DNA of 64,000 bases from a virus. Below, one piece after another: positions 1,549-27,085 of the stretch. Where the stretch lies: positions 37,744 through 101,743 of IMG/VR virus record IMGVR_UViG_3300001336_000002. One strand, given 5' to 3'. The first letter of the stretch is position 1. Every line of letters starts with the position of its first letter. Below the pieces are notes generated by a model. It saw nothing but the letters and a program-made list of their open reading frames with translations. It was not told the DNA's origin and did not search any database. The position numbers and the translations under genes were made by a program.

Positions 1549-1624
1549 AGGGAATACCCAAGGGATATGTTAAAAACAAATAGTATGCTCTGTTAAATAC
1601 TATAGATGTATATAGGTATATAGG

Positions 1625-2134
1625 TTATAGTTTGAGAATATCTACTGGTCCCTGGCAAGTTGGGGAGAAATAAATTGCTGACTGTACAGCCAATTCTATT
1701 CTATCTTCTGTTAATAATGTCTTAGATGTATATAGGGAACCTAAAGCAAAGGGTCCACCACTACCTATAGCAGTTGCTTTTACTTGCGCTACGCTCCAGT
1801 CAGAAGTATTAAATTCAAACAACATTCCATTTGCCCCAATAAGAAAATCTGCAGCATGTTCAGGATCAGCATTGCCATAATCTTCTATAGCAGATTTAAG
1901 ACTAGATGCTATGTCTGTTCTTATTAACCTATATATATCATTATTAGGTATAGGGAGATCGATCATTTCCATTAACTGCCCCGTTCCAAGGGAGGCAGCA
2001 TAACCAAAGATCCATCCATCCTTTACATGGATTTTGGGGCGGGATAAAGAAATCATACTATCTTCATCACTAGCACCTCTATCTGCTCCCATATATACAT
2101 GCTTACCTGTAGATATACCCACAATAACTGTCAT
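1625..2134 (-). CDS. HslV/proteasome-like Ntn threonine protease
   Basis: N-terminal MT-VIVG..MGAD and AIGSGG..ALG motifs typical of phage HslV-like proteins. Confidence 0.75.
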   Translation of the reverse strand: MTVIVGISTGKHVYMGADRGASDEDSMISLSRPKIHVKDGWIFGYAASLGTGQLMEMIDLPIPNNDIYRLIRTDIASSLKSAIEDYGNADPEHAADFLIGANGMLFEFNTSDWSVAQVKATAIGSGGPFALGSLYTSKTLLTEDRIELAVQSAIYFSPTCQGPVDILKL

Positions 2135-2150
2135 GGAGTAATTATATCCT

Positions 2151-2364
2151 AACTTCCAGCGATTTTTTAGGTTCCTTCGTAAAGGTTTTTAATAAATAAT
2201 TAAATCTTAAAACCTCAAAAACTCCCAGCCCATTTTGGGCTCCTTCGTAATACTTTTTTCAAAAATTCTCAGCCCATTTTCCGGTCCTTCGTAAAGGAGT
2301 TTTAATAGAATAGTTTTAAATCCGGTCAAAACTCCCAGCCCATTTTTGAGAGGGATCGTAAAGG
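2151..2364. repeat. Four imperfect ~35-bp direct repeats (AAACTCCCAGCCCATTTT-N-TCGTAAAGG)
   Basis: Copies start near 2151, 2219, 2263 and 2329, separated by A/T tracts. Confidence 0.8.
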
Positions 2365-2639
2365 AGTTTTTATTTAGTTTAAGTTGGACCGGCCCCGCCA
2401 CCCAAACCCGTTGTGTCGCAATGACTTTGTGGGCTTAGTGGCGAAACCTGTTGTCCTGCAGCCTAATCAAACAGCATAGCCAAAAAGATTGCAGGGACAA
2501 TCAGAAGGGACATAAGCCCAATCATCCCAATCATTACCTCTGACTTTCCTGTAGGACGAATAGATGAATCTTGACTCATCCTCTGAACACGACGGGAATG
2601 ATGATATCCTGTAGCCTTGCCAATACCCATAGTGACTCC

Positions 2640-3132
2640 TTAGTTTTTCTGTGAAACAGCAATAGCAGACTGATCTAGCAAGTCATCTAGTGATGAGAAG
2701 TTGCGAGATGAAAGCCCCAGCATATCGCAAACATCGTTATAGCATGAATCTATAGAGGCTTCTCCTTCAGTAGAGGCAGACAGAACGTTGCCGTTGGCAA
2801 CAGATACCGCAAGGGCAAAGGAATCAAAGTGACTGTCAAAAAATGAATACCAAGCCTCGTTGTCAATCATTGTGTTGTATAGATCAGCAAGAATCTCTAC
2901 CTTGTCAATAAGTTCCATCGAATACTCCTAGATCTAGTGTCATCTGCCCTGGCACATTGTCAAAGTGCCCTGAGTTACGATAATACTCTAATCCCTCCTG
3001 AAATGTCAAGATATTGTGAAGGATGCGAGGTCGAGCCTTGGAATGAACGTAGAATGATACGATCTTCCATTCCTCATCGCTCAGTTCCGCATCGTTATAG
3101 ACCTTGATGATTGCGTCTGCTTTCTTCTCCAT
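2640..3132 (-). CDS. Two small hypothetical proteins (2640-2918, 2905-3132)
   Basis: Overlapping ORFs; leaderless start 6 nt after a TAGGAT -10 element. Confidence 0.6.
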
Positions 3133-3284
3133 ACCCGAATCCTATCATAGTTGGGGGACAAATACAAGTGGGGGAGAGGCTGGTAGCGAATCAACCCCTC
3201 CCCCTTCCGATACCTGCACGAACCCTGCGTTAACGAGAGCCGTGTTCTTATCGGCGGTGTCACCATCCTAAGTGACTTGTGTCC

Positions 3285-3620
3285 TTATTTAGATGGTGAC
3301 TCCTTTTGTTTGAGCCAACCGCATGACCATCTACCTCGCTCTACGGTGTCTCTATTGTTGTCTCCTTGTGTACCACCCAAAAGGTGGGCGGGATTGTTAC
3401 AAGATGGATTGTCGCAAGTATGTCTTACGACTTCTGGTAGATATCCATTTGTCTTGTAGAACATGTATCTATGGCTACGCTGTATCTTTGGTCTTTCACA
3501 CCAGAAGAAGCCATATCCATCTTTATCCACTTTCCCTTTCCAAGGCCAACATTCTGTTTCGCCATTCTGTTCTATCTGTGACCAGAACCGCTTTTCTCTT
3601 TTAGTTTCCCAGGTGCCCAT
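3285..3620 (-). CDS. Free-standing HNH homing endonuclease
   Basis: CWPW.G...GYG, HR..F, VRHTCDNPSCNNPAHL..GT..DN motifs. Confidence 0.9.
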   Translation of the reverse strand: MGTWETKREKRFWSQIEQNGETECWPWKGKVDKDGYGFFWCERPKIQRSHRYMFYKTNGYLPEVVRHTCDNPSCNNPAHLLGGTQGDNNRDTVERGRWSCGWLKQKESPSK

Positions 3621-3660
3621 GTATTTATTATATCAGAGTCCTTAGGCATTTCCTTAGGGA

Positions 3661-3813
3661 CTACCGCGCAGCGACGGCGGGAGCCTTGCGGAGACCTGTA
3701 AGATTGACAGAATCAATAAACTTGCCATCCTGATCACGGATAACCACACGCTCCTGAGTGCCATAGCGAGTGTTCCAGGTCTCAAGGTAAGTGTACTTAC
3801 GAACCTTAGCCAT
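3661..3813 (-). CDS. Small basic hypothetical protein (50 aa; not in ORF track)
   Basis: MAKVRKYTYLETWNTRYGTQERVVIRDQDGKF...; AAAGGAGAG SD. Confidence 0.6.
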   Translation of the reverse strand: MAKVRKYTYLETWNTRYGTQERVVIRDQDGKFIDSVNLTGLRKAPAVAAR

Positions 3814-3869
3814 ATTGCTCTCCTTTACTAGTAAGGGTTTTATCTATCTGAATATTCATTCAGAAATCT

Positions 3870-4322
3870 TTAGTTTTCAGACCAGTCAACCTCTACACGA
3901 TCTTCTGAGAATTCTGCATCAACATCATTTTCATAGTATGAAACGCTGAGGCTTGGTTCCAATATGTCTTCCAAGGTATCCATATCAAAGTTCAGGGGAG
4001 CCTTGACAGTACCCGTGAATGTCACGGTAACCTGTACGTCATATTCCTTGCTGATATCAAGATCAAAAATCTCAACCAGGCGTTGGGAAACTTCTTCGTC
4101 CATGTAATCGAAGTTATCCCTGATGTATTCTTCTAACTCATCTACCTTCTCCTGAAGTTTGGTGTACATGTTGGCATAGTTAGAACGACGGGATTCTGCA
4201 ATCTCTAGATCGTTCTTTAGTTGAGCAATCTGTCGCTCCAACTCTTCCGCTGAAGCAATTACGTTGTAAGGATTAGTAGCAACCTCTGCATCTGTGATAT
4301 CTACAAAAGTAGGATCAATCAT
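3870..4322 (-). CDS. Acidic coiled-coil hypothetical protein
   Basis: ORF track; start moved to MIDPTF after a GGAG SD. Confidence 0.65.
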   Translation of the reverse strand: MIDPTFVDITDAEVATNPYNVIASAEELERQIAQLKNDLEIAESRRSNYANMYTKLQEKVDELEEYIRDNFDYMDEEVSQRLVEIFDLDISKEYDVQVTVTFTGTVKAPLNFDMDTLEDILEPSLSVSYYENDVDAEFSEDRVEVDWSEN

Positions 4323-4323
4323 T

Positions 4324-4713
4324 TCAGACTCCAATCTTAGGCTTGGCGTACTTGTTGATGAATTCCTCGCGGGTGAACGAGACAATGCTATCAGTTAGAA
4401 CCCCCGCTTTCCAGTCAAAATCATACAGAGTTACCTCGCGGGTAGCAAAGTCATAGACGGGAACCTTGTGCTCATTGTCTGCAAGGTAGTTGACCGTGAT
4501 ACCCCATCCAAGATCGCCGTTCCAATCCTCGCCAACCAACTGCGAGATGACAATACGAGTCCCATAGGCGGGATCATCAAGGCGTCCAACATTTCGAGCA
4601 TATTCAAGAGCCTTAGCGAACTGGGCAAGCATTCCATATCCTGCCCAATGTCCGTACACGAAGATGGTATTGCCGTCAGTCTGACGCAATCCGAAGTTAG
4701 CGCGATCTCCCAT
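4324..4713 (-). CDS. Phage hypothetical protein (MGDRANF...YGHWAG)
   Basis: GGAGG SD; coherent ORF. Confidence 0.65.
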   Translation of the reverse strand: MGDRANFGLRQTDGNTIFVYGHWAGYGMLAQFAKALEYARNVGRLDDPAYGTRIVISQLVGEDWNGDLGWGITVNYLADNEHKVPVYDFATREVTLYDFDWKAGVLTDSIVSFTREEFINKYAKPKIGV

Positions 4714-4823
4714 TTTATTCCTCCAACGCTAGATAATAGTCTGAATACTCTTTGTCATGTACCGCAAAGTCTATACCTAGTTCCTTGCACAGGTCAAGAC
4801 TTTCTTGAAAGTTTTCCTGGCCC

Positions 4824-7061
4824 TTATACAGGTGAACCATTATAGGCCACCCATTTATGTTCTGAATAATCAAATAAGGAAAGTTGTTCTGGGTCTTCTT
4901 TTAGTCCTTCCTGCCACCGCAGATATCCTGCATAGGATTCGTCTGGCTCTGAGCAGTCCCACCAGACAGCATCCCACAGGCGCAGTTCATCTAGCATATC
5001 CTGAGCCGTGATGATGCGACCATTAGGAAGTTTGTGCTGCAGGGTGAGTGCATCTTCATTGCTGATCTCATATTGCCAGTCCTCGGGAATGTCTGCCCAA
5101 CCTAGGATATATGGATCAGCCTCATCTACAAACTCATCAAAGAATTCCTGCACGGACAACTGAATGTCGGCGGGAATGGGTGGATAAAAGTTATTAGTAA
5201 GGTGCATGGTGATATCGGTCATGAGGTCTCCTCAATCTCTACTGAATCTTGTAAGAAGCCGCCTTCGGTAAGCACGGCATCCTCATGATTATACTCGCCA
5301 CTATAGAATTTTTCCCTAGCCTCATCCATATCAGTAGCCTCTACTTCTAGCGTCCACCAATCTTCTGTTGTGTAACTAATCTGAAACTTAGGCATTAGTC
5401 GAACAACTCCTTTGGTAGAGTATCGTTGGCGGTATCAAAGATGATGCTATAATCCTTAGCAATTTCATCTTCGATATCCCTGCAATACTGAAGTGCTAAC
5501 ATTGGGTTATCGGCCTCTACAACAATGGCTGCTCTGGTAGCGACAAGATACTTAGTCATTACGATACCTCCTGCGAAACGGTGCAGTATAGTGGTGCGTA
5601 ATGGTGCATTACGAGACCTCCTGCGGAATGGGAATAACATCAACTAGCGAGTATAGTGTATTGAGAAGGGTCTGGTCAAGTGCCTCCAGACCTGGCGTAT
5701 CATCGCAAGGGGCAAACCAGCCGTAGCCAGTTTCGGGGGAAGAAGAATCATACTCATAGACATTTCCATCAGGGAAGTAGCCAAAAGTATCAAGTTCTAC
5801 AAACCACTTCTGCATATCAGTATCGAATCCAATAACATAGTGAAACTGCATGGACACTCCTTATCCTGTGTAGGGCTGGGTCCAGTCCCAGGCATAGTTC
5901 TGAAGAATATCTTCTACCCGATCAAGAGCCTCAGACTCATCCTCGGCGTCAATAATAAAACTAACATTCTGAACCTCTACGGTGATATCCATCATTCCTC
6001 CTCATCCAGAGACTCTTCTGTGGTCTCATGAATAATCTGAATCTCTCCAGACCTCATCATGTCATTGAGAATATCCATCTCGTTAGGCTCTGAATCAAAG
6101 TAGACTTCGTAGTCATATGCCGCTTCTTCGCGGGTAGACTCTAGCATGATCGTTCCTGATACACGATAAGTAGGCATCATTCCTCCACAAAGTTGTAGTA
6201 AAGACGGGTGTACCCATTCTCAGTCTCATGGTTGCTATATTGCAACGTACCCTTCACGCCGTCAGACCTGCGCTGAACAATGCAAAGATCATAGAAGAAT
6301 CCTAGAACCTCATATTCCTCTAGCATCTGATCCTTGGTAAGCATATTACTGGCTAGCATGTCATTCCTCCGTCCAATCCAATGCGTGATCGCTAAAAAAT
6401 GCTACTCCGCAATTATATCCATGTCTCCACATAGGAGCAAGGGGTGTCGAAATAAATTCTGGGCAGTTGCTCCACTCCACCTGATCTGGGAATACTTCCT
6501 GCAACTCATCTGGAATATCTCCCAGGTAGCCAATCATGAAGGCCAAAGCAAAGGTCTCGTGCTCATCGCTGGGAATTCTAGGATTGGTGTTCATCTTCAG
6601 CCTCCGTTAGATATAGGCTCTGGTCTTCCACTTCCCAATACAAATTATCGGGGGCGGTACTGTTGAGATAGTCTATTGCATCATAGTAAGTGCCGTCAAG
6701 AGAATCAAGAATGTCAAACATGATATCTTCATCATCTCCTGATGATCTAAACCATTCGATATCTTTGACAAACTGTTCATACATAAGGTCGAAACCTTTA
6801 TCATGAGCAAACTCAATAACGGCTACGGAAAAGTCAAATGCGGACCAATGCGATCCGTCAATGTAGCAACCAGTTTCCACATCAGTTCCAATCTTCGGGG
6901 CGGAATCCGCCATTGGTTAGCCATTCGTCTAATGCTACAAAGTTCTCAGCGAGTTCTCCAATGAACTCATCAACTTCGGCGGCAGACATAAGGTTGATCC
7001 CCACATCCTCCCATGAATAAATCAGTTCTCTGATATTTTTGAGTGCTTCATTAGGGTCCAT
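4824..7061 (-). CDS. Operon of about ten small acidic hypothetical proteins (e.g. 4824-5222, 5609-5857, 5992-6180, 6177-6359, 6361-6594, 6578-6913)
   Basis: Tightly coupled stop/start ORFs downstream of the promoter at 7068-7089. Confidence 0.65.
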
Positions 7062-7220
7062 AACTGCATCCTATATCATGGGTCTGACATTGACAAGAAA
7101 AAATATCCACGGGTTTTTCAAGGCGTTCGTAAGGGTCTTCGTAAAAGAGATTATTTTGTTTTATATGAAAATGCGACCGGCCCCGAAAGTCGTTGCAGCA
7201 CAAGCACTTTCATCAGTAGG

Positions 7221-7293
7221 CGCACCTGATGGGATTTGAACCCACGACCTCTACCGTGACAGGGTAGCGAGCACTCCGCTGCTCCACAAGTGC
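7221..7293 (-). tRNA. tRNA-Asp(GTC)
   Basis: GCACTTG/CAGGTGC acceptor, CTACC-CTGTCAC-GGTAG anticodon arm, GGTTCAAATCC T-arm; CCA not encoded. Confidence 0.92.
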
Positions 7294-7433
7294 GTGCAGG
7301 CAGTTTATCCATACATGCCCAGGTATGTGAGGTCAGGTCCGAAGTACGATCACCCAATCCCCCAGCGCTAGGGGATGATGGGCAGTTTTACATCATGCCC
7401 AGGATGTTAGGGTACTATGACATGTCATCCATG

Positions 7434-8414
7434 TCAGGCAAAGGCGACAGCCTTGACAGCCTTTAGCAGACGATTCTTCTCTGCATTGGTAGCAGCATCG
7501 AAACCGCTAGCAGCAGCGAGGACACCTTCTGCATTACCCCCGCGAGGGTTGCGGAACCAGTCCAGGCGCTCCGTCAGAGTGTTGTACGCACCCCACGCAG
7601 TACCCTTGATGTTGCCAACGGTGTCACCCTGGTAGATGTCAAACAGGGTATCGACCTTGTTTGTCCACTTGGTGACACTACCCTTGACATCCTTGTCAGG
7701 CTCAGGGTAGACAGCCTTGATGATATCGAAGAAGGTATCAGTCGTGATCTCCTTTTCGATCAAGGTCTGCGCCTCCTTCTCAAACTCATCCAGGTAAGCA
7801 TTGGCAAGGCCAAGAGCCTCACGCGCAGCCTGCACCTTGCCAGTAACCGTGGAGGTGTGACGAATCTTGTAGGACTGCTTCACACCATGCAGCGCATAGT
7901 TCAGAGTGTTCTGGCACACAACGCGCACAGGGGTAACGGATGCCTGCACAGCAAGCGAACCATCATGCGAGGTGTGAACCAGCAGATAGGTGTTCACCTT
8001 ATCGGTAGCACCGCTGGGGTCAAGGACTACCTCGCGGTCAAGGGCAAGGGAGCCAAAGACAACCGTGCCATTCTTGATGCTGCCAGCGGTCTCCCAACGG
8101 CCACCGTCAAGCATATTGTCAGCAAACGAGAACAGATCCTCGTTCTGCAGAACCTTGTAACGCTCACCCACAACGCCAAGGACATCGCGGTCACCGTCAA
8201 ACGGATTCTTGCGAGTGACAGCAAAATAGTTCTTGTGTGACCGACCAGGCAGATCAACGTCATCAAGACGAACATTCCAGCCAGCCAGATGAGCGACCTG
8301 AAGCATTTCCGATGTGCTAACCTCGTGGTCAAGGATGGTGCCAAGACCATGCCAAGCGGGTTCGCGCAGGGAAGCGAAGGAAGCCATATCTCCGTACTGC
8401 TCTAGCATGTGCAT
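7434..8414 (-). CDS. DUF932 (phage/plasmid-like TIGR03299) family protein
   Basis: PAWHGLG, Y.VLQN, WETAGS, SHDGS..TPVRVVCQNTL, IRHT and GTAWGAYN motifs. Confidence 0.9.
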   Translation of the reverse strand: MHMLEQYGDMASFASLREPAWHGLGTILDHEVSTSEMLQVAHLAGWNVRLDDVDLPGRSHKNYFAVTRKNPFDGDRDVLGVVGERYKVLQNEDLFSFADNMLDGGRWETAGSIKNGTVVFGSLALDREVVLDPSGATDKVNTYLLVHTSHDGSLAVQASVTPVRVVCQNTLNYALHGVKQSYKIRHTSTVTGKVQAAREALGLANAYLDEFEKEAQTLIEKEITTDTFFDIIKAVYPEPDKDVKGSVTKWTNKVDTLFDIYQGDTVGNIKGTAWGAYNTLTERLDWFRNPRGGNAEGVLAAASGFDAATNAEKNRLLKAVKAVAFA

Positions 8415-8582
8415 ATCATTTCCAATCTGTAGTAACTGATGATGTCATCATCCTATCAAGATGGTCTGACATTGGCAAGAAGAAAACGCAGATTTTCAAA
8501 ATATTTTTTGCAGGGGGTTTGTAACGGGTTCGTAACGATGATCGTAAAAGACTTGACAAAATTAGAATTTCGGGCCGGTCGC

Positions 8583-9222
8583 AAAAAGGTGTCCCCCAGG
8601 GGAGCGGCGGTGGGTGGGGGAGCGCTCAACCCTGAGGGACGTTTAGGGGAGCAGTTTGTCATCATGCTCAGGATGCCATATATGGTTATCAAACCTAGTG
8701 ATTCAGATATTTATTCTATAGAGGGTCAGGGGCTACCTGATTTCAACTATAGACGACTCAACCTGAATGCTATTGTTTGACAGTTTGGGAAGAATAGACG
8801 GACTCCTTTGCGGTTTACCCGCCGCTGATCAGACTTTGGGTAGCGCCCAAGGCGTGTTCTATTCTTCCTAGCCACCTTTAGGGAATCGAACCCTATATTA
8901 CCCAACCAGGGAAGGCAGAGTGCATTACTTTCTAGAATGTTCATGCACCAAGTTTAGGAAGGAGCATTATCTGCATTGCTTTTGCTCCTAAATTCCCAGG
9001 CGACTCCTGATATAGTTGTATAACGTATTAGCAGACCTGGGTGGGGAAGTGAGTCGATGTGGGGGTAGTTATCACAACTACCTGCCTCTTTCCATCTAGT
9101 CTAAAGAAGCGGATCTATTTTATGGGTGCCTGGGCTAATCCGACCCCTACATCCCTCCGCGACTAGATGAGTCCTATTCGGCCCCACGGGTCACATATCC
9201 CCAAGCCACTATTTATTTATGT
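8583..9222 (-). ncRNA. Putative ~640-nt multi-domain structured non-coding RNA or ncRNA cluster
   Basis: Extended -10 TGTTACAAT at 9227-9235, continuous nested stems, tRNA-like minidomain, pseudoknots, GC hairpin plus U-tract at 8583-8640; no credible ORF. Confidence 0.6.
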
Positions 9223-9238
9223 GATTATTGTAACATAT

Positions 9239-10554
9239 TTACTGAGAGGTTGTCCAACGATCTCCACTAGGAGTTGTAAGACGGATTCGATATGTACCCT
9301 GCGGATTGGGCACGATCTCCTGGATGGTGCCTGTCACACCTGACTTTGCAGTAGTGAAGGTCTCTCCGATAGCCAACATATTACTTACCCACAATCTGAA
9401 TAGGAATGGACTTGGTTTGGTTGGTCGCTCCATTAAAGTGACCCTTTTCGTTGCGAACAACGGCCTTTACAGCGTCGCCCCACTTCTCAGTACGAACAAT
9501 GATCTTTGACATTACCCACTCTTTCTGTCGTTGTTGTTGATATTAGTTTACAGTTCTGGCCAGGGATTGTCAAGGGTTTCTCTAAAATCTTCTGCAGTTG
9601 CGTCTATGACACCCTCTTCTATCCACATCCCTACCCCCACCATACCTTGAATAGCGGAGGCACCTATAGAATAGGATATATCATCCAATGTACCAATGTC
9701 AACCATTTCTTTTAAGTCTTGGACTGCTACTGCCACGGCAAGTTTGATATGAGAAACAATATCTTCCCCATTGACATAGCAAATATTGTCAATCATTTTG
9801 TATTCTACATCTGTTTTATCAAACGTATTCATTGACTATAATCCTTAGTTCTGATCTTCCAGAGGCTTTCAGCACCTTGCCGTTGCCCTCCTCATCGACC
9901 AGGGTAAGGATATGCAAGTCATCACCCTCATCTGCATAGTCTGTGCCTACAACATGATAGATGTCGTCTTTGATTAGAATCATGTCCCCTGGCTCAATTG
10001 AATAGACTTGCATTAATTCAGTAGTCATTGTCTTCTCCATTATATTAGAGTTTATAACCAGCCAAAGAGCACAACACCCAAGGCCATGATGAGCGGTAGA
10101 ATGATAATGGCAGTAAATAAAATCCCAATAATAGTCTCAATAGAATTGGGACGAGGTGGCTCATCCATTTAGTGCTCCTTGGGCATCATCGACTACCTTG
10201 GCATGAACAGACATCTCATTATGGATAATCATCAGGGTAGATGCAAGGATTTCATCATCTGTAATGTTGTAAGCATTCTCTATATAATACAGAGCCATCG
10301 CCAGATGGCTGTATGATGCTTTTAGGTTTAGTTGGACAGAGACATCTCTTTCACTCATTTAGATACTCCATCCACGATTGCAGGGCGGTAGTGAAATCAA
10401 GTTGACTAGGATTATTCTTCTCCCACCCAAAAGTAAATACATCTACCTCGCCACCTTCTCCAAACACGTTGGCAGTATGGCTACCCTTTGTCCATCGAAC
10501 GACGACGGTAGGCAGATAAGCAACCATTTCATTTTCTCTAGAAAGAATCATCAT
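9239..10554 (-). CDS. Operon of small hypothetical proteins (9239-9379, 9381-9512, 9548-9832, 9819-10040, 10161-10358, 10351-10554)
   Basis: Coupled ORFs downstream of the promoter at 10562-10583. Confidence 0.6.
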
Positions 10555-10702
10555 GTGTTACACACTAGCATATGGGACTGACATTGACAACTTTTTTACG
10601 AATTTTTTCACGACTTCGTAAGGGCTGTTCGTAAGAGCGTTATGTCTGATTGTTTGATGGCCCGGCCCGAAAAACCGTTGCAGGACAACGGCTTTCGAGG
10701 TT

Positions 10703-10927
10703 CTATGCAATAGCCCCCAAAGTCATTGCAAATGAACGCCTTTCAGCACCTGTCATGCCACCATAGACATGCGGCTCAAAGTCCTCATTTTCGATAGCGA
10801 ACATGAGGCAGTCGTCAATCACGGGACACGATTCACAAATCTCTTTAGCCTGCATGACGCGAGATGTCACTCCCGTCAGGAACAATGCGCTGTCTGCATC
10901 CTTGCACGCTGCCCTATCCTGCCACAT
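10703..10927 (-). CDS. whiB: WhiB-family Fe-S transcription factor
   Basis: WQDRAAC...F...AKEICESCPV..DCL.FA...HVYGG.T..ER (4 Cys plus G[V]WGG-like turn). Confidence 0.92.
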   Translation of the reverse strand: MWQDRAACKDADSALFLTGVTSRVMQAKEICESCPVIDDCLMFAIENEDFEPHVYGGMTGAERRSFAMTLGAIA

Positions 10928-11457
10928 TTGCAATCTCCTTTTTCCACTCGCGCTTCTCGCGCTTCTTGATGATCTTTCGTTCCATCCTAGCATCGGGGTA
11001 TGACATGCAGCACCCCCAGTAGCAACGCATTCCGTGCTTGCCGATATTGCGGCGGGTACGAATCATTCAGCCTCCGTCCATCGAACACCGTCAACGATAA
11101 TATCTTCATCTAGATACATGACGCGAGAATAGTCGAACGCGTTATCTGGCATCATGTGGTAAATGTCGATCCATGCTTTTTCTAGTTCGATGCTTAGATC
11201 CATTCGACTAGATCTCCATCCATGATCTCGTTTACGTCAAGGCCATTGGCCTCTGCAATGGCTTCCCACAGTTCTTCTTCCGTGAACCGTCCGTCCTCTG
11301 GCAGGTAGTCGATGTATGACATGTCAGTGCTCCTGTTCATCTACTTGATCGGTTATGTCGTTATAGAGGGATGTGATGATGTATCCCTGATTCATTAGTT
11401 CGCGCAGGCATTCCAATACCTGATCCCAGTCTGCGCGTGGCATCTCTACGGTTACCA

Positions 11458-12082
11458 TCACACACCTCCAAAAAATAGGTTGGTCATATTGTAGTTGTCG
11501 ATTCTGATCCCCTTGTGGAACGTGATATCGACGCTCGCACCATTGAGCATATCTTCATATTCATCGGGGTCGATCTCATCGACATTGCACAGATATACCT
11601 TGTCGCTGAGAGGGATCACGGTGCCCGTTCCCTCGTGGTAGATAAATAGATTCTTCATGGTTTCACCTTACACTAGGGGTCTGACACTCAGGCCCAGGGG
11701 TCATCATCGGGGGTCGGGAATCGACGGGAGGACAAGGCTTGAGCCATGACAGAATATTCCTCAAGTCCAGAACGCATGATCTCATCACAGGATGAGCAGA
11801 TTAGGTGGAACCGCTCGCACGGTCCCTGGCATAGGAGGCAGTTTGTCTTCATGATATTTCCTTTCAGCAGAATGGGCAGGGAGTCTTGATGGAATCGACA
11901 ATCTGGACACTACCAGCCTCGTTCACCCAACGAGGGCCAACGCGACCAAACTCATCCTTCAGATAGATCGAATAGCGGAACATGGCGAAGGAAGGCTTAT
12001 GGATACGCACAACCTCACCCTTCGTTCCATCGGACATGCGGACCAGATCGCCCACCTTGATATCTTTCACAGAGACCTTCAT
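11458..12082 (-). CDS. Small hypothetical proteins (11458-11658; 11864-12082 SH3/KOW-like)
   Basis: Each lies directly behind a TGTCAG promoter; the 72-aa ORF has an IKVGDLV..GEVV pattern. Confidence 0.55.
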
Positions 12083-12659
12083 GATCTCTCCTTTCTGCTA
12101 TGTCTCTATTCTTGCATAGGGGTCTGACATTCACAAATCGAGAATGTGTATAAAACGGACATTTTAGATCACAGAATGATAACAGAATAGAGAGACATTT
12201 TTCGAATGCGTGTTCGATTCTAAAAAGTTGTTGGTAGACAAGGGGTTTTCAGCGTGTTCTTAAAGTGATCGTAAAAGTTGTTGTGGCACAACAGGTTTGC
12301 GGCCCGGCCCGCCCCGCTCAAAACCGTTGCAGCACAACGGCTTTCATCGATTCATTATCACAAGGGCAGACCACAAAACAATCATGACGACAAAATATCC
12401 AGCAATAGCAACGGGTTTCGGTCGGTATGGTGAAACTAATAGCATGGCAAATATCACCATTTGAAAAAATATAGCAATGGCAATCACCTAGTCTCCCAAT
12501 CGAAATCGACGTTGAAGTCCTTTAGCATACCACTAGCGTCGCCTAGATATCCAGAAAGATATGCTAGTGCTTGATCGGAATTGGGGAATGTCTTTTGGAA
12601 TGATCTTTCACCATAGCCAACGTCGATGGTGAAAGTGACTGTGGGAGTAGGGTGTTTCA

Positions 12660-13217
12660 TCATGCCGCCGACCCCCTAACGATGATCCAGATGAGCGCCT
12701 GAGCGGTGCGAGGGGTGATGCCAAACTGTGAAGCAACGGAGGTGATAGCCTCAGACAACAGACGATATTGTGTCTTGTTAGGCGAGTCGGTGTCCATGCC
12801 AGCAGCACGCATCATCCAAACGTCGATGACGACAGCATCGGTGTCACCAGCGATAGCGCGAGCGAAGGCGTTGGTCTTGAGACCCTTCAGGGCTGAAAAC
12901 CCTTGCGAGACAGCGGCTTCCGCCATGCGAAGATTATTAGACAGGCCGCTAACTGGCTTGCCATTGGCGAACGCATATGCCTTAGCGACATTGGATGCCC
13001 AACGCTCACGAGGGGAGAAGGCAGACACGATGGACGCGCCATGCTCTAGGCTCACACCTAGAATCTCAGCAACGTCTTCCGCAACCTCTTGCGCTTCCAG
13101 ATACCAAGTCGAAGCGGCTTCCATCTGGGCGAGGGTAGCGGTCATGATAAGGCTCTCAAAACGAGCGGCGGCTGATGCGAACACGGAGGTGCCCTCTGGG
13201 GCGGTAACTGTAATCAT
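12660..13217 (-). CDS. Phage protein with DNA-glycosylase-like fold (DUF7178-like)
   Basis: WY..A, SAFSP..W..N, G.KT.AF, VVIDVWM and QA.IW pattern; leaderless. Confidence 0.55.
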   Translation of the reverse strand: MITVTAPEGTSVFASAAARFESLIMTATLAQMEAASTWYLEAQEVAEDVAEILGVSLEHGASIVSAFSPRERWASNVAKAYAFANGKPVSGLSNNLRMAEAAVSQGFSALKGLKTNAFARAIAGDTDAVVIDVWMMRAAGMDTDSPNKTQYRLLSEAITSVASQFGITPRTAQALIWIIVRGSAA

Positions 13218-13409
13218 GGAATGATCCTATCAAAGGGGTCTGACATTCTGAGGGTATATGGAGGATTATTCGGTAACGAAACGGTCACGATGCTTGGACT
13301 TACGGTTATACCTGGCCTTATTCCTATGGGGCTGGGCAGCATTAGAACGACGACGGTCCATGATGGCTCGCTGATGACTATTAGACCTGCGTGACTTATT
13401 CATGGCATG

Positions 13410-13438
13410 ATCCTATCATATTTAGATAATCATGTCAA
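13410..13438 (-). promoter_or_regulatory. Canonical sigmaA promoter TTGACA-N17-TAGGAT, leaderless
   Basis: ATG at 13403 lies 6 nt after the -10. Confidence 0.7.
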
Positions 13439-13540
13439 ATGAAAAAAGTTGTTGTGTCTCAAGGGTTTCTAGCGATTCAGGGAAATATCGTAACCTCGTA
13501 AACCGTTGCAGCACAAGGGAAATCGCGCCCGGCCCTCTTT

Positions 13541-14705
13541 TCAGGATTTGTCAAGTATCTCCTGTATGTCGTTACGAACCTGCAACAACTGTTCGATCAT
13601 GCGTTCGACACGCTTGTATTCATCAGGGTTGTCTGTCGCATAGTACGCACGATCCAGGGGGTCTAGAGTGAGATAGATATCATTGCTAGCCTTCTTTAGG
13701 TTAGACAAGAATGCGTCATGACGCGAGATGGTCTTCATTAGTCCTCCTGATATTCATCGAAGTCTAGGGGCTCATAGTCAGCACACCAACCGCAGATAGT
13801 ATCGGTGCTATCTGCCCAATCCCAGAACACCTCATCACATGAGGCGCAAACAACTGCTTCCAGGTTGATCTCATATGTATCGTTCATGGATTCACCTTAT
13901 CATGATAGTCTGACATTCATCAATGAAAAATAAAAATGCTTTTTATTACATGATCGTAACGAGTGTTCGTAAGGGCTTGACAAGTGCAAAGATTTGGGCC
14001 GGGCCTGAAAACCGTTGCAGCGCAACGACTTTCGGCTACATGGTTTCGATGTGTCCCACCAAGCCCATGAGCATGGCGAAGGCGAAAACACCTAGTGTCA
14101 CAAGGACTTTCTCCATCACAATGCCTCCACAAAGTCGTTGCCGTGCAACACCTTTTTGATGACGGGAAGGTGGTCATCACACACGAGGGTAGACACATGC
14201 TTTCCATTGTACTCAGACACCTGAGTCACCTTGTGGGTAGCACGAGCACGGCTCACGCGGTTATCGCAGAATACATGCTGGCAGACGGGCGAACCGTCGC
14301 GGGTATAGTTAGGCCAACCCATGATGATCACTCACTCTCATTACTGTAGAACACTTGCTGTTGGACACGGATATAGTTGTTGATTGCTTGCTGGATCTTG
14401 TTCATGGTATCACCTTATCATGGGGGTCTGACATTGTGGCCTAGGGCTCATCCCCTTGCGGGGCTTATTTGCCTAGGAAGATTTAGTTATTAGGCGAACA
14501 CCCTAGCCCTATGGCAGTCAGCGCAGATGATGGTGTCATTCACGATGGACAGGTCAGCGGTGTTATTCGTTCCGCAGGTCCAGCAAGCCCACGGCTCGCG
14601 GCGGATCTGTCGGTCATAGTATTCTGTGATGCCCCAGAACACAACGGTGAACACAGCGGGGATTCCGATGAAGATAGCGATTGCCATCAGGATACCTTCG
14701 AACAT
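13541..14705 (-). CDS. Small hypothetical proteins, several with CxxC Zn-finger-like motifs (13541-13738, 14116-14331, 14490-14705)
   Basis: ORF track and promoter positions. Confidence 0.5.
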
Positions 14706-15350
14706 TTGTCTAGCCTTTCTTCTTGTGTTGCTTCGATACTATCACAGGGGTCTGACATTGGACGAGAGGTTAGACCAACTCCTCGTCCACGAACCGAATA
14801 ATCTCAGTGTCGAACGGCTGTTCGATTGCAAATGCTTCGGCGGCTTCACGAGTATCGAACCGTGCAACGGTACGCCCCATGACACGAGCCACGCTATAGC
14901 CTGTACGGGTAATCCACATATCTGTCACCTCCTTTGCTTTCATACCTGAAGACTATCAGATTGGTCTGACATTGACAAATTTGAAAAGGTGCAAATCGGA
15001 CATTTTAGATAACAGAAATGTAACGAAATTTTTCGCTCAGGTGTTCGATTATTTTGATCAAAAATTCTACGCTGAGGTTCGATCAAAACCGTTGCGCTGC
15101 AACGACTTTTGTCGTATAGCAAGGCTGAAAAGTTGTTGTGCTGCAACGATTTTTGCTGTGGCTGAGTGCGCTCTATCTTATTCGAATTTTTGTTCGATTT
15201 TGCGTACCGTACACACTTACAAAATATTAAACTTTAGTTCAAATCCAATTCTGATAAAATTTTAAGAATTAAAAATATGGGCACACAAAAAATTTTTAAA
15301 CTTTCTATAAATCGAATATATCAACTCATCATGCGTAGTATCATATATAC

Positions 15351-16112: not shown

Positions 16113-16873
16113 ATGAATAAAATCAAAGGGGTTCTGCGTTCAACAATAATGCAGCGCCCTTTTGATTTTTATGTGGCAACATTATTATTTCTTGCAGGTT
16201 TTTATAGCATAGTTAGCGACACATGGCCAGAACGAGTAGGCAATGGACTAACACACACCTTTATTACAATAGTTTCTGTTTATTTGATGATTGCTTCGGG
16301 GGTAGTTATGGCTGCTTTTTCTTGCAAAAGAGCCAAAAAACCAATATTTACACTTATGGGGGAAATGTATGGATGGTTATTCATATCTGCGGGATCACTC
16401 GCAACTACTTTAATGTACATAGGATCAGTAATAAGCAATGAGCCTTCTTCTTGGGGCTTATGGGCAATATTACTCTTTGTTTGGTCAGGTATGGCTATAG
16501 CAAGCGGGGTCCGATTCTTGGATCTACTTTATGTATACAGGAGCATTAAAAATCAATGGAACCAGGAATAATTATTGCAATAATCGGAGTACTAGCAGCC
16601 CCCTTTGCTGCACTTATTACTTGGCTATTAAATAGAAAAAAGAATGTTGCAGAAATTTATAATGCTCTCAGCGAGTCTTCTCAAACGGCGGTAGAGACTA
16701 TGCAGTTGACCATGAACGAACTGCGTATAGAACTAGAAGAAGCCCGTCGTAAAATTGATGCACTCATAGTAGAAAATGAATTGCTAAGACAAGATCTACA
16801 CGATCTTAAAGATCAAAATGTAAAACTTATGACACAGATTACCGAATTGCGTTCTTTCTACGGGCAGTCATAA
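16113..16873 (+). CDS. Four-TM membrane protein (16113-16571) and TM plus coiled-coil protein (16556-16873), lysis-associated
   Basis: Hydrophobicity pattern and position after the holin. Confidence 0.55.
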
Positions 16874-17144
16874 CAGCATGACAATTAGCACATCTCACTT
16901 CACATTTGTCTATCTCTTCTAATATTGTGCTCCATGCATAATCACTACGAATTAAATTAGACACACTACCCTTTTTGTTATCGCTTATGTGATCAAACTG
17001 CAGCGCTACAGCATGTGCATTATATCCACAATCAATGCATCCCCGCTGTTTTTTGATCATGCCTGCGAGACGCCATTTGGCTCCTCTTTTTCGCGCTCGC
17101 GACGAAGGAAAATCGTTTATTAGAGTTTTAGATTCTAAATTCAT
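16839..17144 (-). CDS. HNH endonuclease-like protein
   Basis: CIDCG...LQFDH...CEVRCANCH. Confidence 0.8.
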   Translation of the reverse strand: MNLESKTLINDFPSSRARKRGAKWRLAGMIKKQRGCIDCGYNAHAVALQFDHISDNKKGSVSNLIRSDYAWSTILEEIDKCEVRCANCHAVMTARRKNAIR

Positions 17145-20239: not shown

Positions 20240-21157
20240 ATGACAAAAAGATTCCTAGTCCCTATTAGTACAGACCACGTTGACTTCAACACAGATAATT
20301 CTTTTGAAAATACAACGGGGAGATTAAGATGGAACTCATCTGAGGGAACTCTAGATTTAGGGTTGTCTCCCACAAAAGAGATACATATTGGGCAAGATGC
20401 GGTATATAGGGTAAGAAACTCTACAGGTTCAATAATCTTAAAAGGAACTGCGCTATACGCTTCTGGAGTTGAGCCCTCTGGAAGGATAGATGTTTCTCCA
20501 TATGTTGCTGACGGATTGATTAGAGAAGTTAGATTTATGGGTCTTGCAACAGAAAACATAAGCAATGGTGTTAACGGATTTGTTCAGCATTTTGGATATC
20601 TTAAGGGCTTGGACACAAGAGGTACTGAAGAGACTGCAATATCTGTGGGTGATGAAACATGGGCTGCTGGAGATATTCTTTATGTACATCCAACTGTTCC
20701 GGGAAAACTTACAAATGTCAGGCCACAGCATGAAATCATTGTTGCACTTTTAATTAATAGACATCAATCAAGCGGGATACTTTTTGTAAGACCATCTACT
20801 CACGGCCATATTGATGACATTCACGATATTGAATTAACAAATCTACAAGACAAAGACATACTTTCCTATAATTCTACGTCTGGGTTATGGGAAAATGGTC
20901 AGCCAGATACCATCGTTCCATCTGGATCATCATATCCAGTATCTGATCTAGTTAATGGACAACTCTTTTATAATGTTACAAACGGAAGAACAGCAATACA
21001 TTTTGATAATATATGGAAAGAATTTGCCTACGTTGGAGATACGGCGGTACTTGATAATGGAAATTCTGGAACTACGGTATTCTCAGAAACAATAGATGGT
21101 GGCAACTCTTCAACAACAGTTTTCGTTGGACAATATGATGGAGGTACAAGCATTTAG
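20240..21157 (+). CDS. Virion structural/tail protein
   Basis: Context; beta-rich sequence; leaderless TATAAT promoter. Confidence 0.55.
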   Translation: MTKRFLVPISTDHVDFNTDNSFENTTGRLRWNSSEGTLDLGLSPTKEIHIGQDAVYRVRNSTGSIILKGTALYASGVEPSGRIDVSPYVADGLIREVRFMGLATENISNGVNGFVQHFGYLKGLDTRGTEETAISVGDETWAAGDILYVHPTVPGKLTNVRPQHEIIVALLINRHQSSGILFVRPSTHGHIDDIHDIELTNLQDKDILSYNSTSGLWENGQPDTIVPSGSSYPVSDLVNGQLFYNVTNGRTAIHFDNIWKEFAYVGDTAVLDNGNSGTTVFSETIDGGNSSTTVFVGQYDGGTSI

Positions 21158-21191
21158 AACAATAAATGTTATAATATAATGGAGGATTACA

Positions 21192-23804
21192 ATGGCTACG
21201 CTTATACAAATTAGAAGAGATACCCAGACAAATTGGACAACAAATGATCCAATATTAGCATCTGGTGAAATTGCCTTTTCTACCGATCAATATAAAATTA
21301 AAATAGGTGATGGAACTTCTAATTGGTCTGCCCTCGCTTATATGACTGCAACACCCACAGAAATTACAAATCAAATTAATGCAGCAGTAGCAGGAATTAT
21401 TGACGCAGCCCCCGCAGCCCTAGACACTTTAAATGAACTAGCAGCCGCGCTTAACGATGATCCAAATTTCTTTACTACAGTTGCCAACAATCTCTCTAAT
21501 CACGAATTGGATTCCACCAATGTTCACGGCATTGAAAATACGGCAGATCTAGCAACAAAGAACTACGCCGACACTGCTGTGTCAACGCATAATAGCGACA
21601 CTACAAGCGTTCACGGAATATCAAATACCGCCAATCTTGTTTATACAGATGATTCAAGGCTCTCTGACGCAAGAACTCCAACATCTCATAACCACACAAC
21701 ATCTGAAATTACTAATTTTACAGAAGACGTAGAAGATGTTGTAGGTGGTATGGTATCAAACAATACGGAGTCTGGGATTTCCGTTACATATGACGATGAA
21801 GCAGGAAAACTAAACTTTAATGTAAACGATCCAACCATTACTCTTTCTGGGGATGTTTCTGGCTCTGCTACGATGACTGATTTAGGAAACGTAACCATTA
21901 CTGCCACCGTCGCAGATGATAGTCATAATCACATTATTGAAAATGTAGATGGGCTACAAAACGCGCTTGATACCAAGTTAGACTCAGCATCCTACACCGC
22001 TTCAGACGTTTTAACAAAAATTAAAACTGTAGATGGATCTACTAGTGGACTAGACTCCGACTTGCTTGACGGACAGGAAGGATCTCACTACCTAGACTGG
22101 ACAAACACCACAAACAAACCAGACCCTGTAATAACTCTGGCAGGAGATTTAAGTGGATCAGTAACACTTACAGACTTAGAAAGTGGAACTCTTACAGCCA
22201 CTATAGTTGCAGATTCGGTTGCTCTAGGAACAGATACCACGGGTAATTATGTGGCAACCGTAGCAGGAACAGATGGAGTTTCTGTATCTGGATCAGGGTC
22301 TGAAACCGCTGACGTTACAATAGCAAACACCGATAAAGGATCTTCACAAAATATATTTAAAAATGTTGCAGTATCTGGTCAATCTGATATAGTTGCAGAC
22401 TCCAACAATGATACTCTTACTGTTTCGGGTGGAACAGGCATATCTTTAACAACAAATGCAACAACCGATACCCTTACCGTTACAAACTCTGGAGTAACCT
22501 CTCTAACAGGAACGTCCAACCAGATATCAGTTTCTGATTCTACTGGATCAGTAACCCTTTCTACTCCACAGAACATTGATTCTTCTGCAAGTCCAACATT
22601 TGCTGGTGCCACTCTTGACTCAATAAAGGTCGGTATGACAAATGCTAACGAAATTGATACAACATCAGGAAATCTTATTTTGGATTCCGCTGGAGGAACT
22701 GTAGAAATAGATGACAACCTGATTGTTTCAGGAGATTTTACAGTTAATGGATCTACCACCACGATCAATGCAACCACCATTACAGTAGATGATAAAAATA
22801 TTGAACTTGGATCTGTAGATAACCCAACTGACACTGCCGCAAATGGCGGAGGAATTACTCTTAAAGGAACAACAGACAAAACATTTAATTGGTCTGATGC
22901 TACAGATTCCTGGACTTCATCAGAGCATATTGACCTAGTTAGTGGAAAAGTATTAAAAATTAATGGATCTCAGGTTCTTTCTGCAACAGAATTTGTTGGA
23001 AATTCGGCAACCGTTACTGATGGCGTTGTTACTACTGGTTCATATTCTGATCCCTCCTGGATTACAGGTCTGTCATGGAGTAAAATTTCTTCTACTCCAA
23101 CAACTCTTTCTGGGTATGGCATTAGTGATGCACAGCCCCTGGACACCGAACTAACGGCTCTTTCTGGACTAACGTCTGAAGCAGACGCGCTACCTTATTT
23201 CACGGGAGCGGGAACAGCAGCAATAACAATGTTCACCTCCTTCGGCAGATCATTAGTAGACGATGTAGATGCTGCTACTGCAAGATCAACAATGGGTATT
23301 GGAAATGTAGAGAATGTCGCACTGTCAACATGGGCGGGAAGTACAAGCGTCACTACTCTAGGGACAATAGTTACTGGAACATGGAACGGATCAGTTATTG
23401 GAGATTCATACATAGATTCTGGAATTGCAAGACTTGCTTCACCATCATTTACTGGATCTATTACATTAGATTCAAAGGCAAATGTAGATACAACAAGTAC
23501 AACTATTTCTGCAACTACCGCCACAACTATCGATACTCTAAGTGCTTCTTCATACAGAAGCGCAGAGTATTTGGTACAAGTAACACAAGATACAAAGCAA
23601 ACAGTATCAAAAATTATCATGATTCATGATGGAACTACCGCCAATATTTCAGAATACGGTGTCATTGAATTAGGAGGAACGAGAATTCCTCTTACACTCT
23701 CTGCCACCATTTCTGGAACAGACGTACTTCTGCAAGCAACTATTACAGATGCCGATACTACAAATGCGACGGTAGAAGTAGTTAGAACAGCAATTGTGCT
23801 ATAA
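21192..23804 (+). CDS. Long tail fibre with Mtd-N-like anchoring domain
   Basis: IQIRRDT..NW...PILA.GE...KIGDG; DTLNELAAAL; fibre repeats. Confidence 0.75.
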   Translation: MATLIQIRRDTQTNWTTNDPILASGEIAFSTDQYKIKIGDGTSNWSALAYMTATPTEITNQINAAVAGIIDAAPAALDTLNELAAALNDDPNFFTTVANNLSNHELDSTNVHGIENTADLATKNYADTAVSTHNSDTTSVHGISNTANLVYTDDSRLSDARTPTSHNHTTSEITNFTEDVEDVVGGMVSNNTESGISVTYDDEAGKLNFNVNDPTITLSGDVSGSATMTDLGNVTITATVADDSHNHIIENVDGLQNALDTKLDSASYTASDVLTKIKTVDGSTSGLDSDLLDGQEGSHYLDWTNTTNKPDPVITLAGDLSGSVTLTDLESGTLTATIVADSVALGTDTTGNYVATVAGTDGVSVSGSGSETADVTIANTDKGSSQNIFKNVAVSGQSDIVADSNNDTLTVSGGTGISLTTNATTDTLTVTNSGVTSLTGTSNQISVSDSTGSVTLSTPQNIDSSASPTFAGATLDSIKVGMTNANEIDTTSGNLILDSAGGTVEIDDNLIVSGDFTVNGSTTTINATTITVDDKNIELGSVDNPTDTAANGGGITLKGTTDKTFNWSDATDSWTSSEHIDLVSGKVLKINGSQVLSATEFVGNSATVTDGVVTTGSYSDPSWITGLSWSKISSTPTTLSGYGISDAQPLDTELTALSGLTSEADALPYFTGAGTAAITMFTSFGRSLVDDVDAATARSTMGIGNVENVALSTWAGSTSVTTLGTIVTGTWNGSVIGDSYIDSGIARLASPSFTGSITLDSKANVDTTSTTISATTATTIDTLSASSYRSAEYLVQVTQDTKQTVSKIIMIHDGTTANISEYGVIELGGTRIPLTLSATISGTDVLLQATITDADTTNATVEVVRTAIVL

Positions 23805-23838
23805 TAAAAATAAATAAACAAAGGGGATAGTGAACCTT

Positions 23839-24396
23839 ATGGCAGATAAGAACTTCAAAGTAAAGAATGGTCTAGAAGTGGGAGACCATGATATTGTTAC
23901 TCCTGATGGAACAATAACTCTTCCTAATGGAACCCATACTCTTGTACCTTCCGACTCTCCTACTCTTACGGGAACTGTAGGCCTTCCTTCAACAACCTCT
24001 ATCGGAAATGTTTCAGACACCGAAATTGGATATTTAGATGGCGTTACGTCTGCTATTCAAACACAGTTAGACTCTAAAGCAGGTTCTTTAGTATCCATAA
24101 ATACTCAAACTGGAACGTCTTATACATTAGCACTATCAGATTCTAATAAATTAGTAGAAATGAATAATGCTGCTGCGAATACTTTAATTATTCCACTCAA
24201 TTCTAGTGTTGCTTTTCCCATTGGAACTAAGATTGATTTTATTCAAACTGGAGCAGGAGAAACATCTGCATCTCCAACATCTGGTGTTACCTTGAATTCA
24301 GATACTGATAAACGTACAATTAATGCACAATGGGCAGCGGCATCATTGATCAAGCGTGGAACAGATACCTGGGCACTTATTGGAGCATTAAAGTAA
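23839..24396 (+). CDS. Tail fibre adaptor protein
   Basis: C-terminal YTL..SD...FPIGT.I..Q.GAG...W.L.G.L domain shared with 28044 and 28957. Confidence 0.6.
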   Translation: MADKNFKVKNGLEVGDHDIVTPDGTITLPNGTHTLVPSDSPTLTGTVGLPSTTSIGNVSDTEIGYLDGVTSAIQTQLDSKAGSLVSINTQTGTSYTLALSDSNKLVEMNNAAANTLIIPLNSSVAFPIGTKIDFIQTGAGETSASPTSGVTLNSDTDKRTINAQWAAASLIKRGTDTWALIGALK

Positions 24397-25415: not shown

Positions 25416-25429
25416 AAGAAAGATCAATA

Positions 25430-26260: not shown

Positions 26261-26290
26261 TATGATATAATATATCAAGGAGGAATTAAT

Positions 26291-26605
26291 ATGAGTGAAC
26301 AACCAGTAGAGCCAACTAAAACCCCCTTCGAATTACGACAGGAAGAAGTTTCCCAATATCAGGCCAACATTGATCTTTATACAGCAGTAGTTGCAGGACT
26401 ACCATCAGAATGGCCCGATCATTTAGTTCAATATAAAGGTCGAACAGACAAACATGCGGCCATTGCTGAAATTGATGATCTTGAAGACGTAGTTCTTGTA
26501 AGCGATCTTTGGACACATGATCAGGCAGTTGCTGCAATTCGGTCGGAAACATTAGAAATGCGTAAAGCACAGTCTATTCTTAATGCTCTTATCGCACAGC
26601 AATAA
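26291..26605 (+). CDS. Hypothetical protein
   Basis: TGATATAAT promoter and GGAGG SD. Confidence 0.6.
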   Translation: MSEQPVEPTKTPFELRQEEVSQYQANIDLYTAVVAGLPSEWPDHLVQYKGRTDKHAAIAEIDDLEDVVLVSDLWTHDQAVAAIRSETLEMRKAQSILNALIAQQ

Positions 26606-26683
26606 GGTTATACTGCCGTCAAAAATATTGACGGAATTGATTTAATGCGATAGTATATATCTATATCAAAAGAAAGGTATATA

Positions 26684-27070: not shown

Positions 27071-27085
27071 TGATATAATAGCAAT

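Follow-up and report, generated by a model that had tools for sequence, protein, structure and literature searches.

A 64,000-nucleotide stretch of an environmental virus genome raises the question of what switches on a block of small genes in which one promoter sequence, TGTCAG followed at a fixed distance by a -10 hexamer, recurs along a single strand. The stretch, hereafter the window, comprises bases 37,744–101,743 of the 101,743-bp IMG/VR virus record IMGVR_UViG_3300001336_000002, and coordinates are those of the window unless stated otherwise. The record is that of a ~102-kb phage ascribed to freshwater actinobacteria, and the contig is circularly closed, its 'terminal repeat' being an overlap of 72 bp. 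Plus-strand genes occupy the genome from 1 to ~38.7 kb and again from ~53 kb to the end, and between them, at window positions 1,600–15,000, lies a minus-strand island of ~40 small genes to which the repeated promoters belong. Actinobacteria possess a master activator of the DNA-damage response, PafBC, which has recently been tied to phage resistance. We consider it probable, from the sequence comparisons set out below, that the 11–12 sites of the island are working promoters of the PafBC type (RecA-independent DNA-damage promoters, operating by 'sigma adaptation'), with the host PafBC and the housekeeping sigma factor sigma-A as their reader.

The first-pass annotation of this DNA had listed ten minus-strand promoters with TGTCAG 10 nt upstream of a -10 hexamer, and all ten were recovered. 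Nine are exact matches to TGTCAG-N10-TAnnnT, at 7068, 8450, 10562, 11665, 13224, 13894, 14412, 14736 and 14950, where dinucleotide shuffles give an expectation of 0.66 and a maximum of 4; the tenth, at 12108–12129, is a near-exact site with AAGAAT as its -10. The other hexamers are also as listed there, namely TAGGAT and TAAGGT three times each and TAGTGT, TAGTAT and TAGTCT once each. Taken alone, the word TGTCAG is about as common in the window as chance predicts (34 copies vs 31.7 expected), and the signal is thus its pairing with the -10 hexamer, the spacer being exactly 10 nt at every island site. The remainder of the 101,743-bp genome holds a single other match to the motif, which is unrelated-looking and chance-like. 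A position weight matrix trained solely on sites from other phages, a check that had been proposed together with a scan of the relatives, scored the ten sites at 13.5–25.6 bits and added an eleventh, TGTCAT at 10984–11005 (13.4 bits), upstream of the WhiB gene of the island. On the plus strand it found nothing above 7.5 bits, in agreement with the earlier remark that none had been seen in the late region; the plus-strand arms instead use TGnTAnnAT extended -10 boxes that have no TGTC upstream element. The conserved word in the island is longer than the hexamer, reading AATGTCAGACC(C) and then T-n-TG-n-TAnnnT, and in this phage the box is preferentially flanked by AA on its 5′ side and ACC on its 3′ side. 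The TG of an extended -10 is present at eight of the ten sites, and four of them have a -35-like hexamer, matching at five of six positions, at 17 nt. Six leaderless genes had been proposed, and an ATG does indeed lie 6–7 nt after the hexamer at 7089, 10583, 11686, 13245, 13915 and 14433.

The same element recurs in related phages. Eighty related viral loci were retrieved with the DUF932 protein, and in these TGTC[A/G]G-N10-TAnnnT occurs 912 times on the gene strand and about 15 times on the other. Among the 1247 gene-strand TGTCRG words in these loci, TAnnnT follows at N10 in 912 cases, at N9 in nine and at N11 in three, while the opposite strand is flat; such rigid spacing is as expected of an element that is read jointly with RNA polymerase. 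An unbiased count of the words lying 10 nt upstream of every TGnTAnnnT in the related loci placed TGTCAG (441), TGTCGG (114) and TGTCTG (39) on top, and a few relatives use TGTCTG throughout, so that TGTC emerges from the variation among relatives as the constant core. The 706 distinct family sites have AA before the box, T/A and then G/C, G/C after it (TGG being the commonest of these tails and ACC the second), TG at -15/-14, and A at +7 past the -10 with C/T at +6, a signature that fits a transcription start site. A -35 hexamer with at least five of six matches at 16–18 nt from the -10 is present in 19 % of the family sites vs 2 % of the background, and 60–80 % of the sites are without a recognisable -35. 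Complete relatives carry their sites in one-stranded islands of ~10 kb, about 10–26 sites per genome, and both tails are found within one genome. An 18-base version of the pattern was found in at least 120 further viral stretches, again with one-stranded clusters. The complete motif-bearing records all share a portal protein, 48–62 % identical, and by this criterion the carriers of the motif are one large family of 100–116 kb environmental phages. For the same reason convergent use of the motif by unrelated phage lineages, which we had considered as a pointer to a host factor, does not discriminate. One relative has an exact terminal repeat of 3,269 bp within its island, and by likeness to T5 and SPO1 this hints, though weakly, that these may be early genes.

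The first-pass annotation had likened the element to the PafBC consensus, and the likeness extends to both sequence and geometry: the published motif is tGTCgg(N10)tA(N3)T, its 5′ part, termed the '-26 element', spans -28 to -23, its invariant GTC is read by residues R46 and R50 of PafB, and PafBC is inserted between region 4 of sigma-A and promoters that have no -35 (PMC8635444). Activation of PafBC by single-stranded nucleic acid, which the same annotation invoked, is published for single-stranded DNA, and PafBC binds only RNA polymerase that is already on such a promoter (PMC11804915). Small actinobacterial genomes were used for comparison as host-like stand-ins, and this phage's own host may differ from them. 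Of 201 genomes sampled from the class, 193 have the HTH_PafC domain, genomes of 1.3–1.5 Mb among them (five of the 201, G008, G023, G028, G031 and G037, are unpublished and were used in this tally only). Upstream of recA, 13 of 14 small genomes have a single TGTCNG-N10-TAnnnT, where about 0.02 would be expected per locus by chance; it is mostly TGTCAGTGG or TGTCGGTGG, with N7 to TAnnnT, and in most cases the LexA box, TCGAACAGATGTTCG, comes after it. Across nine genomes of 1.3–1.5 Mb the pattern TGTCRGTG-N8-TAnnnT was found 59 times vs four for the reversed control (~15-fold), and orthologous sites recur between genomes. The commonest tail of the phage family, TGG, matches the host recA box, and the box of the phage family is thus the box of the host regulon, which is conserved throughout the class. 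A freshwater Aquiluna metagenome-assembled genome (MAG), which served solely to exemplify a freshwater actinobacterium, has tandem PafB and PafC genes with R46 and R50 kept in PafB; its genome-wide motif count is not enriched (9 vs 14 for the control), and a TGTCAGACCC site before its rmuC gene was dropped as support because it does not recur in 29 further genomes of that family.

Some observations on the host side stand apart from this comparison. Four to seven PafBC-type boxes lie within ~25–45 kb in G128:C1:443341-467143 and in the syntenic 450–510 kb regions of G086, G108, G061 and G148, a clustering that suggests a PafBC-controlled gene island in small host-like genomes. The RecA protein of the phage was tried as an indicator of the host and named none, as the genome matches were only to phage contigs in MAG bins. 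Five contigs of the phage family (L086, L087, L088, L089 and L092) are binned in MAGs labelled Aquiluna, Methylococcus, Beijerinckiaceae, Bifidobacterium and Lishizhenia, and in those public bins they are likely to be contaminants.

The earlier proposal was that the phage wires its early programme either to the host damage sensor or to a PafBC-like activator of its own. The box before recA and the genome-wide enrichment favour the former. The latter gained no support, nor did the idea that a WYL or PafC-type helix-turn-helix activator might be encoded in the remaining genome: six-frame searches gave no match to WYL or HTH_PafC in this phage genome and none to WYL in 16 related records, ten of which are at least 90 % complete. 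A phage sigma factor was rejected as the reader since a six-frame search of the genome found no sigma region 2 and only a sub-threshold region 4-like match. The helix-turn-helix matches that the phage does have are weak or generic, comprising a 49-residue protein with a weak HTH_11 match and a 180-residue protein with HTH_17. The rigid spacing, the strand bias, the start-site signature and the leaderless ATGs argue that the sites are promoters, and the identity of the box with that of the host, its geometry, the weak non-consensus -10 hexamers and the absence of a -35 at most sites make host PafBC with sigma-A the most likely reader. We infer not only PafBC as the reader but also where transcription starts, when the genes are expressed and what triggers them. 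Host RNA polymerase with sigma-A would bind the TGnTAnnnT extended -10, and host PafBC, having bound single-stranded DNA, would sit between sigma region 4 and the DNA, with the helix-turn-helix of PafB recognising, at -28 to -23, the GTC of AATGTCAG; transcription would then start ~7 nt past the -10, often directly on an ATG. Single-stranded DNA arising from infection or damage would in this way boost the block of ~40 small genes, and its candidate sources are the entry or resection of linear DNA, phage replication, breakdown of host DNA and true damage.

The promoters and a set of hairpins divide the island into units. Five hairpins of the form AAAG-CGTTG..CAACG-TTTT, at -9 to -18 kcal/mol, are present on the minus strand. 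The first (15079–15116, -13.8 kcal/mol) is upstream of P1 in a divergent control region; the terminator-like hairpin at 14002–14039 (-16.9 kcal/mol) closes the P1–P3 cassette, that at 12314–12351 (-15.8 kcal/mol) closes the P5 cassette, that at 10665–10702 (-18.3 kcal/mol) follows the WhiB gene and that at 7180–7217 (-9.1 kcal/mol) follows the tRNA-Asp gene. The promoters, all on the minus strand, fall into two groups with respect to these boundaries. Six follow a boundary and lead a cassette: P1 (14950–14971, with TAGTCT, a -35-like TTGTCA 17 nt from the -10 and 21.7 bits), P4 (13894–13915, TAAGGT, with a leaderless ATG), P6 (12108–12129, the near match with AAGAAT, 21.1 bits), P8 (10562–10583, TAGTGT, with TTGTCA at -35 and a leaderless ATG 7 nt past the -10), P9 (8450–8471, TAGGAT, TTGCCA at -35, heading a cassette with the DUF932 gene at 7434–8414 and the tRNA-Asp gene at 7219–7293) and P10 (7068–7089, TAGGAT, TTGTCA at -35, leaderless ATG). 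These six, ending at 14971, 13915, 12129, 10583, 8471 and 7089, have -35-like hexamers TTGTCA, TTGCCA, TTGTGA or TTGATG that match at four to five of six positions. The five internal promoters (14757, 14433, 13245, 11686 and 11005) match the -35 consensus at only one to three of six positions: P2 (14736–14757, TAGTAT, without a -35-like hexamer and with the highest score, 25.6 bits), P3 (14412–14433, TAAGGT, leaderless with its ATG 6 nt past the -10), P5 (13224–13245, TAGGAT, at the leaderless start of the DUF7178 gene, 12660–13217), P7 (11665–11686, TAAGGT, leaderless ATG) and the extra site (10984–11005, TGTCAT-N10-TAGGAT), which is ~50 nt before the likely ATG of the WhiB gene (10926). A degenerate site that had been noted at 3139–3160, TGTCCC-N10-TAGGAT, is present with an ATG 6 nt downstream and falls below the weight-matrix threshold. 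One cassette is led by an ordinary sigma-70-type promoter without the TGTC element (13410–13438, TTGACA-N17-TAGGAT, TG-extended and followed by a leaderless ATG). We envisage two tiers of promoter, the cassette-leading ones behind a terminator, which with their -35-like hexamers would probably fire at a basal level on sigma-A alone, and the internal ones, which have the -26 box only and should need the activator.

Several observations weigh against reading the island in terms of PafBC, and they bear on what else might account for the box. A single phage family carries the motif, which means that a family-specific phage protein could be the reader, and Streptomyces phage Coruscant, the nearest cultured relative, shows no enrichment (3 matches vs 5 for a control pattern). 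The tail ACC of this phage differs from the usual host tail TGG, and the sole ACC-tailed host site is the unconserved one before rmuC. The extended -10 TG at eight of ten sites, together with the five-of-six -35 at four of ten, means that part of the activity may not need an activator, and in some relatives the orthologues of the DUF932 promoter consist of TTGACA and a -10 from which the TGTC box is absent, so that the box is dispensable there. The restriction to one family and the absence of the motif from Coruscant would be natural if a DNA-binding protein made by the phage read AATGTCAG at -26 and recruited or adapted sigma-A, the likeness to the host being mimicry or coincidence. The conserved word in this phage, AATGTCAGACCC, is moreover longer than the published PafBC core, and the phage has its small helix-turn-helix proteins (the 49-residue HTH_11 and 180-residue HTH_17 proteins) as well as two WhiB proteins, members of a family known to bind region 4 of sigma-A. 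We nevertheless regard a phage-made reader as unlikely, given that searches of the phage yielded no WYL, PafC-type helix-turn-helix or sigma domain and those of 16 relatives no WYL, that an unrelated factor would by our estimate arrive at TGTCRG at exactly N10 by chance about once in 10,000, that the commonest tail in the family is that of the host recA box, and that the genes read first cannot depend on a factor still to be made.

The promoters that combine a box with a good -35 could also be understood if TGTCAG were an operator, placed in the promoter spacer for a phage or host repressor that shuts the promoters off; the asymmetric operators and stoperators of the cluster A mycobacteriophages provide a model. 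With a good -35 at 16–18 nt from the -10, as in 19 % of family sites and four of the ten here, the box fills the spacer, the classic position of an operator; it is asymmetric, one-stranded and repeated many times, and the orthologous promoters that have TTGACA and a -10 lack it. Yet most sites are without a usable -35 and hence would be weak unless activated, an operator should tolerate shifts of 1–2 bp whereas N9 and N11 are almost absent, and the box is a known site of a host activator, all of which leaves repression quite improbable. It might finally be that no dedicated factor is involved, sigma-A alone reading extended -10 promoters and TGTCAG being either favoured as spacer sequence or left over from the copying and pasting of one duplicated module. 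TGn does precede the -10 at eight of ten sites, the plus-strand arms use extended -10 boxes without any upstream element, and the promoter modules are clearly paralogous, as in the upstream regions of P1 and P6. We hold this to be very unlikely, however, because TGTC has been kept at one fixed distance in 706 distinct sites with varied spacers, in phages whose portals are only 48–62 % identical, and a relic would have decayed across phages so diverged.

A second host damage regulator may also act on the island. Four palindromes with at most one mismatch to TCGAAC-N4-GTTCGA lie within 12202–15197, where shuffles give an expectation of 0.00, and six of the seven sites in the genome with at most two mismatches fall in the same 3-kb stretch. 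The perfect copy (14810–14825) is 53 nt upstream of P2, inside the gene that P1 would drive; copies with one mismatch are at 15182–15197, 13593–13608 and 12202–12217, the last of them 73 nt upstream of P6 and sharing bases with the -35 of a putative extended -10 promoter, TGTTATCAT (12176–12205). In the related loci 18 LexA-like boxes were found vs 0–2 for scrambled palindromes, typically 35–180 nt upstream of a TGTC promoter. No LexA-like protein (S24 peptidase) was found in the phage, and the boxes suggest that host LexA acts here too. Two paralogous modules of ~95 bp precede P1 (15048–14972) and P6 (12217–12130) on the minus strand, each with an SOS-like box, then TTCTGTTATC, then TCTAAAATGTCCG(A/T)TTT and then the TGTCAG promoter; the box that heads the first (15048–15033, minus strand) has two mismatches. 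Words like ATGTCCG(A/T)TTT recur upstream of promoters in relatives. By analogy with mycobacterial recA, the order of elements before P1 and P6 could represent a tandem arrangement of a LexA-controlled and a PafBC-type promoter.

Only few products of the island can be named by Pfam and PHROGs, these being DUF932, DUF7178, WhiB and an HNH endonuclease, to which the tRNA-Asp is added, and its small genes may have a role in host takeover. On the minus strand, the gap that separates each terminator from the cassette-leading promoter after it holds pairs of TTACGA words 8–13 nt apart (13972/13959, 13501/13493, 10634/10621, 8547/8535, 7144/7132 and 2361–2182); in relatives the gene strand has 2.2 times as many copies of the word as the other, with a peak 20–60 nt upstream of TGTC promoters, and the pairs are likely, on this distribution, to be a second regulatory site. 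Between the P8 and P9 cassettes a minus-strand segment of ~650 nt (8583–9235) is free of open reading frames and had no Rfam match at the gathering threshold; there is also a candidate TGGACA-N18-TACAAT promoter (9256–9227, minus strand). In the late arm (plus strand, 21150–27080) TAGAAC-like words, which may be a separate late-promoter element, precede several extended -10 boxes by ~7–12 nt, as before 21167, 23797 and 27071. Outside the window, at genome positions 16,591–17,115 (L084:16591-17115), a 174-residue protein has a match to Anthrax_toxA (ADP-ribosyltransferase-like) at an E-value of 5.8e-5, which is below the cut-off.

As to the phage itself, its two WhiB genes and the likeness of its portal to those of Streptomyces cluster BE phages such as Coruscant (44–46 % identity) indicate that it is an actinophage, and a megablast search found no near-identical cultured phage. 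Its G+C content is 40 % over the whole genome and 47–48 % in the stretch of interest. It encodes its own replication and nucleotide set (DnaB, primase, DnaE, RecA, ThyX and ribonucleotide reductase), and as neither an integrase nor a repressor was seen, in a search for either that was not exhaustive, it looks lytic. The cluster BE phages (Stanwilliamsviridae) are its closest cultured relatives by portal and resemble it in having large genomes with a G+C content far below that of typical actinobacterial hosts, but in Coruscant the motif is not enriched.

The type of promoter is already known, and its wholesale use by a virus did not come up in the literature searched, where no paper connected PafBC boxes with the promoters of phages. 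The phage sites resemble the RecA-independent DNA-damage promoters of the hosts, such as P1 of mycobacterial recA, in their TGTC[A/G]G at -26 with a constant GTC, in the exact 10 nt to TAnnnT, in the lack of a recognisable -35 at most sites of the family, in the TG(G) tail common in the phage family and in having LexA boxes nearby as at recA; those promoters are used with the housekeeping sigma factor, and we take the phage sites to be alike in this. They differ in being gathered, 11–26 per genome, in one island of ~10 kb before small uncharacterised genes rather than repair genes, and in that an extended -10 TG is frequent, the promoters leading a cassette add a -35-like hexamer, and AA and ACC are the preferred flanks of the box in this phage. 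The middle promoters of phage T4, with a MotA box at -30 and AsiA ('sigma appropriation'), are likewise a class of phage genes set by an upstream box that replaces the -35, with an adaptor on sigma region 4, but T4 makes its own adaptors and remodels sigma, whereas here no phage adaptor was found and the box is that of the host. Phages coupled to the SOS response through host LexA boxes (CTX-phi, and coliphage 186 through tum) share with this one the placing of phage genes under sites of a host damage regulator, and LexA-like boxes are found here too; in those cases, however, repressor sites govern the induction of temperate phages, and here the main element would be an activator box on an apparently lytic phage.

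Whether the whole family of 100–116 kb freshwater actinophages runs its island on both host damage regulators, with PafBC as a sigma-A adaptor at 10–26 promoters per genome and LexA boxes alongside, is to our mind evenly balanced; it would be the first virus known to employ 'sigma adaptation', with single-stranded DNA as the 'go' signal of the phage. If abundant lake phages do build their promoters on the PafBC box, the alarm that the host raises over broken or single-stranded DNA would be the ignition key of the phage. This would be a new kind of host-factor capture, in which the captured protein activates instead of repressing and serves as an adaptor for which the phage needs no gene of its own. 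One-stranded clusters of TGTCRG-N10-TAnnnT would then serve as a marker by which uncultured phages could be linked to actinobacterial hosts and their blocks of regulated genes located.

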